In this document: piece by piece, positions 62,361-62,973 of the stretch
How positions within the stretch are numbered: position 1 is the stretch's first letter
How the letters are laid out: each line of letters starts with the position of its first letter
DNA from: Escherichia coli
Lineage (GTDB): Bacteria; Pseudomonadota; Gammaproteobacteria; Enterobacterales; Enterobacteriaceae
Assembly: GCF_045037415.1 (NCBI RefSeq)
Contig: NZ_CP173440.1
Reading direction: 5' to 3' (one strand)
Length of the DNA: 64,000 nt
Translations under genes and position numbers: made by a program
The notes under the pieces: generated by a model
Database searches by the model: none
Seen by the model: the letters and a program-made list of their open reading frames with translations, nothing else
What the model was told of the DNA's origin: nothing

Positions 62361-62973
62361 ATGTTTAAAGAGATTAAAAAATGGTTTGTTAAGGGCGTCA
62401 ATTATGAGACTGAGTTCATCGCAGCCGTAAAGCGATCCAAGAAGTGGAAACTTGAAGTTCCTAATATCTCTTTAAAAAAGACTCCATTTCTTGCTGGGGA
62501 AAGGGCTGCTATAGCTTTAAAAGTTATTCAGGACTATGCTTCAATGCATAGCCCGGAGGAAGTATCTCAACAATGTTTTGGGTATATGTATGGAATTCAG
62601 AGTGCTTTGGAAAACGCTTTACAAACTCCACTATATTATACATTAGGTTATATTGAATTTGAAAAGAGAACCAGTGTTTCATACAGAAATTCCAAAATTA
62701 GAAAGGAATTTGTATAATCCAGTTTCAGGCGTTGGGGCGATTGATTTACATGCCTGGCTGACGACTCCTAATCTTGAAATCATTGATCTTACTTTCGCAA
62801 CAACATATGGTATTGTGAATGATATTCCATCAGTAATTGGACGTTCTTCCTTTCAACATTACTCTGAGTTTAATGATAACATGGTCTATCATCCTCAATT
62901 AATCGGCGACGATTATTTGAAGAAGATTGGAGCCATCGTTGATTATAGTTCGTTGAATATTATTATTACGTAG
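62361..62973 (+). pseudogene. AT-rich gene apparently split by a frameshift
   Basis: Two overlapping ORFs (62361-62717 and 62653-62973) in different frames; overlap falls in an A-rich tract (gaaaagagaacc). Both halves are AT-rich. Confidence 0.3.

Follow-up and report, generated by a model that had tools for sequence, protein, structure and literature searches.

Two open reading frames and one inserted base

Two overlapping open reading frames occupy positions 62361-62973 of a 64,000-nucleotide stretch of Escherichia coli DNA (contig NZ_CP173440.1; the whole stretch is referred to below as the window). They raise the question of whether the locus holds two genes or one and, if one, whether the split is a working frameshift, a mutation, or a fault of the record. 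The original prediction, made from the sequence alone, was that the two frames would give a single protein of about 200 amino acids if joined at an A-rich tract. The relevant features are the following:

62349-62353, plus strand: putative Shine-Dalgarno-like GGGGA, read from the sequence 7 nt before the ATG at 62361
62361-62717, plus strand: 5' open reading frame, 118 aa
62653-62973, plus strand: 3' open reading frame in the +1 frame, 106 aa from TTG at 62653 or 99 aa from GTG at 62674
62661-62672, plus strand: purine tract GAAAAGAGAACC, from the sequence and the alignment
62669-62670, plus strand: the lesion, one extra A, giving AA in place of the single A of all aligned relatives

The 613 nt of the window were aligned to the intact 612-nt gene of records CP031372.2 and NZ_CP173541.1, and one additional A was the sole difference. 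Codons 1-103 of the 5' frame (62361-62669), which include the conserved Cys72, are native and correspond to residues 1-103 of the intact 203-aa protein; they are followed by a tail of 15 out-of-frame codons and a TAA stop at 62715-62717. The native span of the 3' frame, its last 100 residues, corresponds to Pro104-Thr203 and includes the invariant His130, Trp132, Thr134, Asp142, Pro178 and Gly182. The 62361-62717 and 62653-62973 frames overlap by 65 nt. Since both parts are identical to the intact 203-aa protein, joining them reflects real homology and not chance. We conclude that the two frames represent the halves of a single 203-aa gene, in agreement with the predicted length of the joined product. 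The gene is AT-rich, with a GC content of ca. 35% versus 45-55% in the flanks.

The frameshift occurs after codon 103 and is due to an A to AA change inside the hexamer GAGACC, which reads GAGAACC in the window (GAAAAGAG-ACCAG in the relatives, GAAAAGAGAACCAG in the window). The interrupted hexamer, at 62666-62672 in the window, lies within the purine tract. The adjacent A4 run (62662-62665) has the same length in the window and in the intact gene, and the indel is therefore not a homopolymer-length variation. Thus, the frameshift was correctly placed in an A-rich tract by the original prediction, but not in an A-run: A4 is unchanged, and the single A at 62669-62670 is the base that was doubled.

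Distribution of the intact and split alleles

A megablast search with window positions 62250-63050 (801 bases) matched 71 Klebsiella and three E. coli plasmids, and in every match listed the 801 query bases were aligned with 800 bases of the record. The gene was a single 612-nt open reading frame in all three E. coli plasmids and in 59 of the 60 near-identical Klebsiella plasmids among the matches listed (71 in all). The one exception among these 60, CP154638.1, has a 5-bp insertion. More distant homologues gave the same picture. A word-indexed search yielded 51 of them, mostly 203-aa single open reading frames, from Serratia, Lonsdalea, Salmonella, Citrobacter, Providencia, Pseudomonas and Vibrio, and an exhaustive HMMER search yielded approximately 326 cluster representatives at E <= 0.001, mostly single proteins of ca. 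180-200 aa that cover query residues ca. 14-195, across the junction.

The comparison with intact homologues that had been proposed as a check thus returned single open reading frames spanning both halves. The finding that was to count against a split gene, namely independent homologues of the halves as separate genes, was also looked for; the homologues are single frames, and the split-gene reading stands. The exact 118-aa product is recorded on one E. coli contig only, 353,276 bp long (WP_404999121.1 / XKM79118.1), with no entry among independent read-set assemblies; the 99-aa product is recorded as WP_404999122.1. The extra A is confined to one record, and the gene is otherwise whole in the near-identical plasmids listed, CP154638.1 excepted.

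Programmed or phase-variable frameshifting

One of the two explanations offered by the original prediction was a programmed or phase-variable frameshift. In a functional split of this kind, the frames would be joined by programmed +1 ribosomal frameshifting or transcriptional slippage, or would alternate through a phase-variable switch at the A-rich tract. Restoring the frame would take a +1 shift. The shift site does have a rare AGA codon, the 65 nt common to both frames lie in a purine-rich tract, and a second indel allele (+5) is present in the same tract of one other plasmid; yet the gene is a single open reading frame in 59 of the 60 listed plasmids, in all three E. coli copies and in nearly all distant homologues, and the longest run in the overlap is an A4 of constant length. 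When the sequence of the overlap (62653-62717) was read, no X-XXY-YYZ heptamer, no prfB-like in-frame stop with an upstream Shine-Dalgarno sequence, and no A/T run of eight or more was found in it. The tract at the shift site, GAAAAGAGACC, contains no repeat of the length found at contingency loci. Tract length was identical in 59 of the 60 listed records, the remaining one having a 5-bp duplication.

The likeness to phase-variable contingency genes, prfB and dnaX consists in two overlapping frames that give one protein if joined; unlike them, the gene in the window has no long repeat, no conserved shift site, no conserved split and no tract-length polymorphism. Since the split is neither conserved nor located at a shift site, a programmed or phase-variable frameshift is unsupported. 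This part of the original prediction fails on three counts, the shift being absent from relatives, without a slippery motif and without a change in tract length, and we regard a programmed or switchable frameshift as effectively refuted and a functional split as very improbable. The split is an ordinary, non-programmed frameshift in a single record, and it marks a young pseudogene if it is not a consensus error. With the candidate programmed or phase-variable frameshift removed, the biological weight of the locus is small.

One-base differences private to the window and to a sister plasmid

To define differences private to the window, it was compared with the plasmid of E. coli 98206 and with CP031372.2, the CRISPR array being excluded. 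The private differences were as follows:

16465: G to A, changing the Dcm site CCAGG to CCAAG
29747-29749, plus strand: loss of G at 29748, GGGAGACC in the relatives and GGGAACC in the window
54019: G to T, changing CTGAAG to CTTAAG
62669: gain of A, in GAGACC

Position 30736, which is C in the window and T in both references, is not private, as the C is also present in the plasmid of E. coli 98203. The loss at 29748, in non-coding DNA upstream of a group II intron ltrA gene, is the only other window-private indel. Both window-private indels (2 of 2) are located within GAGACC, of which there are 17 sites on both strands of the 64 kb; the simulated probability of two random positions sharing a hexamer is 0.018. 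In the 40000-64000 region, direct alignment to CP031372.2 revealed two private differences, 54019 and 62669, and at least 15 plasmids of unrelated studies had an equal score over this region, which is consistent with the same two differences.

The plasmid of E. coli 98203 (Alexandria), p98203-contig_1, matched the window in one 42.7-kb alignment, with an identical CRISPR array and the common 30736 allele. We therefore conclude that the two plasmids belong to the same lineage. They differed by six substitutions and six one-base indels. Over the 43 kb concerned, nine of these 12 differences, namely five substitutions and four one-base indels, are private to the 98203 plasmid, which has a private L143P change in the gene studied here, right after a GATC site. 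Both 98203 and 98206 belong to a nanopore-only study, in which R10.4.1 data were processed with dorado, Flye, four rounds of racon, and medaka, with no short reads (PMC11672413). The accessions of the two window products (WP_404999121/122) numerically adjoin those of 98206 and 98203 products (WP_404999137, WP_404999281). Based on the adjacency of accessions and the relatedness of the plasmids, the window probably comes from the same nanopore-only project.

Independent disruptions of the gene

The gene is also disrupted in other lineages. In CP154638.1, a tandem GAAAA duplication (5 bp) is located 5 nt upstream of the window site (TTTGAAAAGAAAAGAGACC), in the same purine tract, and leaves products of 114 and 99 aa; the gene is intact in the sister plasmids CP154635, CP154637 and CP154639. 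Contig SRR22352347_207 opens with IS1-like sequence 22 nt upstream of the window site, which we take to be the right end of IS1, and several K. pneumoniae products annotated as partial start at codons 101-105, consistent with contig breaks at an IS1 insertion. The Yersinia pestis orthologue (CP001593.1 stretch, 2001-2610) is split into 114 and 87 aa at homologous codons, and the split form is present on dozens of Y. pestis contigs. Another orthologue is frameshifted in a T-run three codons later, and two more are broken near codon 122.

These independent disruptions indicate that the gene is dispensable. The tract at codons 95-107 may be mildly fragile, in a sample partly biased by the search route. 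The disruptions support the original prediction of a decaying accessory gene as far as the family, which is repeatedly broken elsewhere, is concerned, but they do not establish that the extra A of the window is real.

Origin of the extra A

On a slight balance of the evidence, we favour a long-read consensus error over a real mutation as the origin of the extra A. The original prediction had not considered an error of this kind, which is at least as likely as decay of the gene. The A at 62669/62670 would have been introduced at a GAGACC motif, presumed to be methylated in the host, during basecalling or polishing of a nanopore-only assembly, and the real plasmid, a conjugative MOBH plasmid of the IncHI1B/IncFIB type, would then carry an intact gene. 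On the complementary strand GAGACC reads GGTCTC, the Eco31I/BsaI site, and it includes the EcoP1I site AGACC; given these specificities, methylation of the motif in the host is plausible. The substitutions at 16465 and 54019 could likewise be methylation-linked consensus errors or real mutations, e.g., deamination of 5-methylcytosine at the Dcm site. The pattern as a whole fits residual long-read consensus errors better than it fits evolution, because the plasmid backbone is invariant worldwide, yet private one-base indels are found only in these assemblies, and because both window indels fall in one motif. Known indel errors of nanopore-only assemblies at methylated motifs resemble the present case in that a private one-base indel makes a false split gene; the second indel in the same motif, the Dcm-site substitution, and relatives assembled with Flye, racon and medaka add to the likeness. 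Unlike a typical nanopore error, the window change is A to AA and not a miscounted long homopolymer, in a case where the platform and the methylation are themselves presumptive. The absence of a classic homopolymer error counts against a consensus error, as does the clean 98206 assembly from the same study, with one substitution in ca. 60 kb; R10.4.1 sup consensus is usually accurate. The GAGACC coincidence is to be read with n = 2 and a motif picked after the fact (p ~0.02), and real disruptions of the same gene do exist in other lineages.

The latter are the main attraction of the rival explanation, a very recent spontaneous +1 insertion that has made a young pseudogene of a dispensable gene, to which we give a substantial, though somewhat less than even, chance. 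Such an insertion would cause a simple loss of function (a null allele), with translation ending 15 codons past the shift, and it may possibly have been favoured once the plasmid had passed from Klebsiella into E. coli. The AT-rich gene is cargo, with no conserved partner in the four contexts examined, and two of the four E. coli-borne copies have a private damaging change in the 612-nt gene, the rough joint chance of which, computed from private-difference densities, is 0.005. A real mutation has to contend with an allele present in a single record only, with a second private indel that affects the same motif outside coding sequence and cannot be explained by selection on the gene, and with a density of private one-base indels in the sister 98203 assembly that is implausible for an otherwise worldwide-invariant plasmid. 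As in young frameshift pseudogenes, such as the split genes of Y. pestis, full-length homologues are intact, and a single indel in the ancestral open reading frame accounts for the premature stop and the two residual frames; in contrast to the Y. pestis split genes, the window allele is known from a single record and may be absent from the cell itself. A stronger version, in which the extra A is real and the gene, often located directly past traG on MOBH conjugative elements, is counter-selected and repeatedly knocked out at a fragile purine/T-rich tract (codons 95-107) in new hosts, is improbable in our judgement. The damage in two of four E. coli-borne copies and the independent disruptions in Klebsiella (5-bp duplication, IS1) and Y. 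pestis would be part of this pattern; if true, it would suggest that the enzyme has an antagonistic function or is costly to particular hosts.

In practice, a gene that is split in just one record, in a long-read-only assembly, should be viewed as a possible error of the consensus, and the suspicion is stronger when further indels private to the record affect the same short motif. The wider use of these results is limited to this motif-linked indel signature and to the unannotated protein family described below.

Cutting at GAGACC followed by misrepair was also considered as a source of the two indels and was rejected, since both lie inside the site, while type IIS and type III enzymes cleave at a distance from theirs.

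The intact protein and its predicted fold

No Pfam, NCBIfam, PADLOC or PHROG match was found for the intact protein, and no sequence or profile match in the PDB. An alignment of 92 family members had no consistent Pfam match either. In this alignment, T94, H130, W132, T134, D142, P178 and G182 are invariant, while Y15, A22, C72, G96 and E139 are nearly so, C72 being present in at least 90% of the sequences. An AlphaFold2 model built on the same alignment had a mean pLDDT of 91 and a pTM of 0.86. In the model, C72 opens a helix (72-87), and H130 and D142 are located on strands 130-134 and 139-142, respectively.

A structural comparison of the model gave the following matches and scores:

2HLY: 7.4
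TglA (transglutaminase-like): 5.5
SseI: 5.4
LapG: 5.3
PeiW: 5.1
arylamine N-acetyltransferases and a protein glutaminase: 4.7 to 4.2

The top match in Foldseek was also 2HLY (probability 0.97, TM 0.43). 2HLY (PF09641) has been grouped as papain-like (PMC10318531). The model has the papain-like core fold, with modest structural scores. It resembles papain- and transglutaminase-like hydrolases in this core, in the cysteine at a helix N-terminus, and in the histidine and aspartate on strands, and it differs from the members of the superfamily named above (2HLY, TglA, SseI, LapG, PeiW and the arylamine N-acetyltransferases) in having no family match at the sequence level. A search of a viral fold library yielded weak matches to uncharacterised proteins only, and the longer homologues included a single fusion, to pentapeptide repeats, which was uninformative. 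Judging from the model and the conserved residues, the intact protein is a putative stand-alone enzyme of the papain/transglutaminase fold with a candidate Cys72-His130-Asp142 triad and a predicted activity. Because the frameshift follows codon 103, Cys72 is left on one fragment, and His130 and Asp142 on the other. The ca. 326 cluster representatives thus form an unannotated family of ca. 190-aa proteins with conserved Cys, His and Asp and a confident papain-like model, which is possibly worth naming and testing.

Neighbourhood of the gene and other features of the window

The gene is located beyond traG in the two conjugative elements examined, the present type of plasmid and an integrative element of Y. 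pestis. In the latter, the orthologue is downstream of a TraG_N gene and adjoins an integrase. No conserved partner gene was found in the Serratia and Pseudomonas contexts, and a two-gene system with the neighbouring large helicase, which had been considered, was dropped for this reason.

A direct repeat of ca. 270 bp is present at 61015-61291 and 63436-63709. The two copies, the only ones in the window, are 82-94% identical and 2420 bp apart, and they flank a block comprising a 118-aa gene, a 42-aa gene, the split gene and a 104-aa gene. The second copy is just upstream of the large helicase gene, which starts near 63813. The repeat may be a repeated promoter or regulatory element; an Rfam scan of 60000-64000 yielded only sub-threshold chance matches, with none for the repeat. 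Paralogous segments of ca. 527 bp (40729-41252 and 61364-61888, 92.8% identical) contain two copies of a 118-aa hypothetical gene. The 118-aa gene and the split gene are separated by the 42-aa open reading frame (62032-62160, minus strand), which has a weak match to phrog_1373, a phage transcriptional-regulator family (E 4e-4), and seems to be a piece of a longer HTH protein.

In the 98203 plasmid (NZ_CP173548.1), seven private differences are clustered in 800 bp at the traG end (window 60619-61421). They include three one-base indels that alter the TraG product. Together with L143P, at window position 62789, this cluster suggests local consensus problems in that record.

A CRISPR array is present at 28462-28800, with the repeat GTATTCCCCCCG.GTGCGGGGGTTATCGG, and adjoins genes that carry the annotations csf2, cas6 and DNA helicase in relatives; we read the system as type IV. 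Its spacers differ from those of CP031372.2 and the 98206 plasmid and are identical to those of the 98203 plasmid. A segment of ca. 4 kb (17222-21297) did not align to the stretches compared of the 98206 plasmid and CP031372.2. The segments flanking it align in different orientations, which points to an insertion or an inversion breakpoint at this position.
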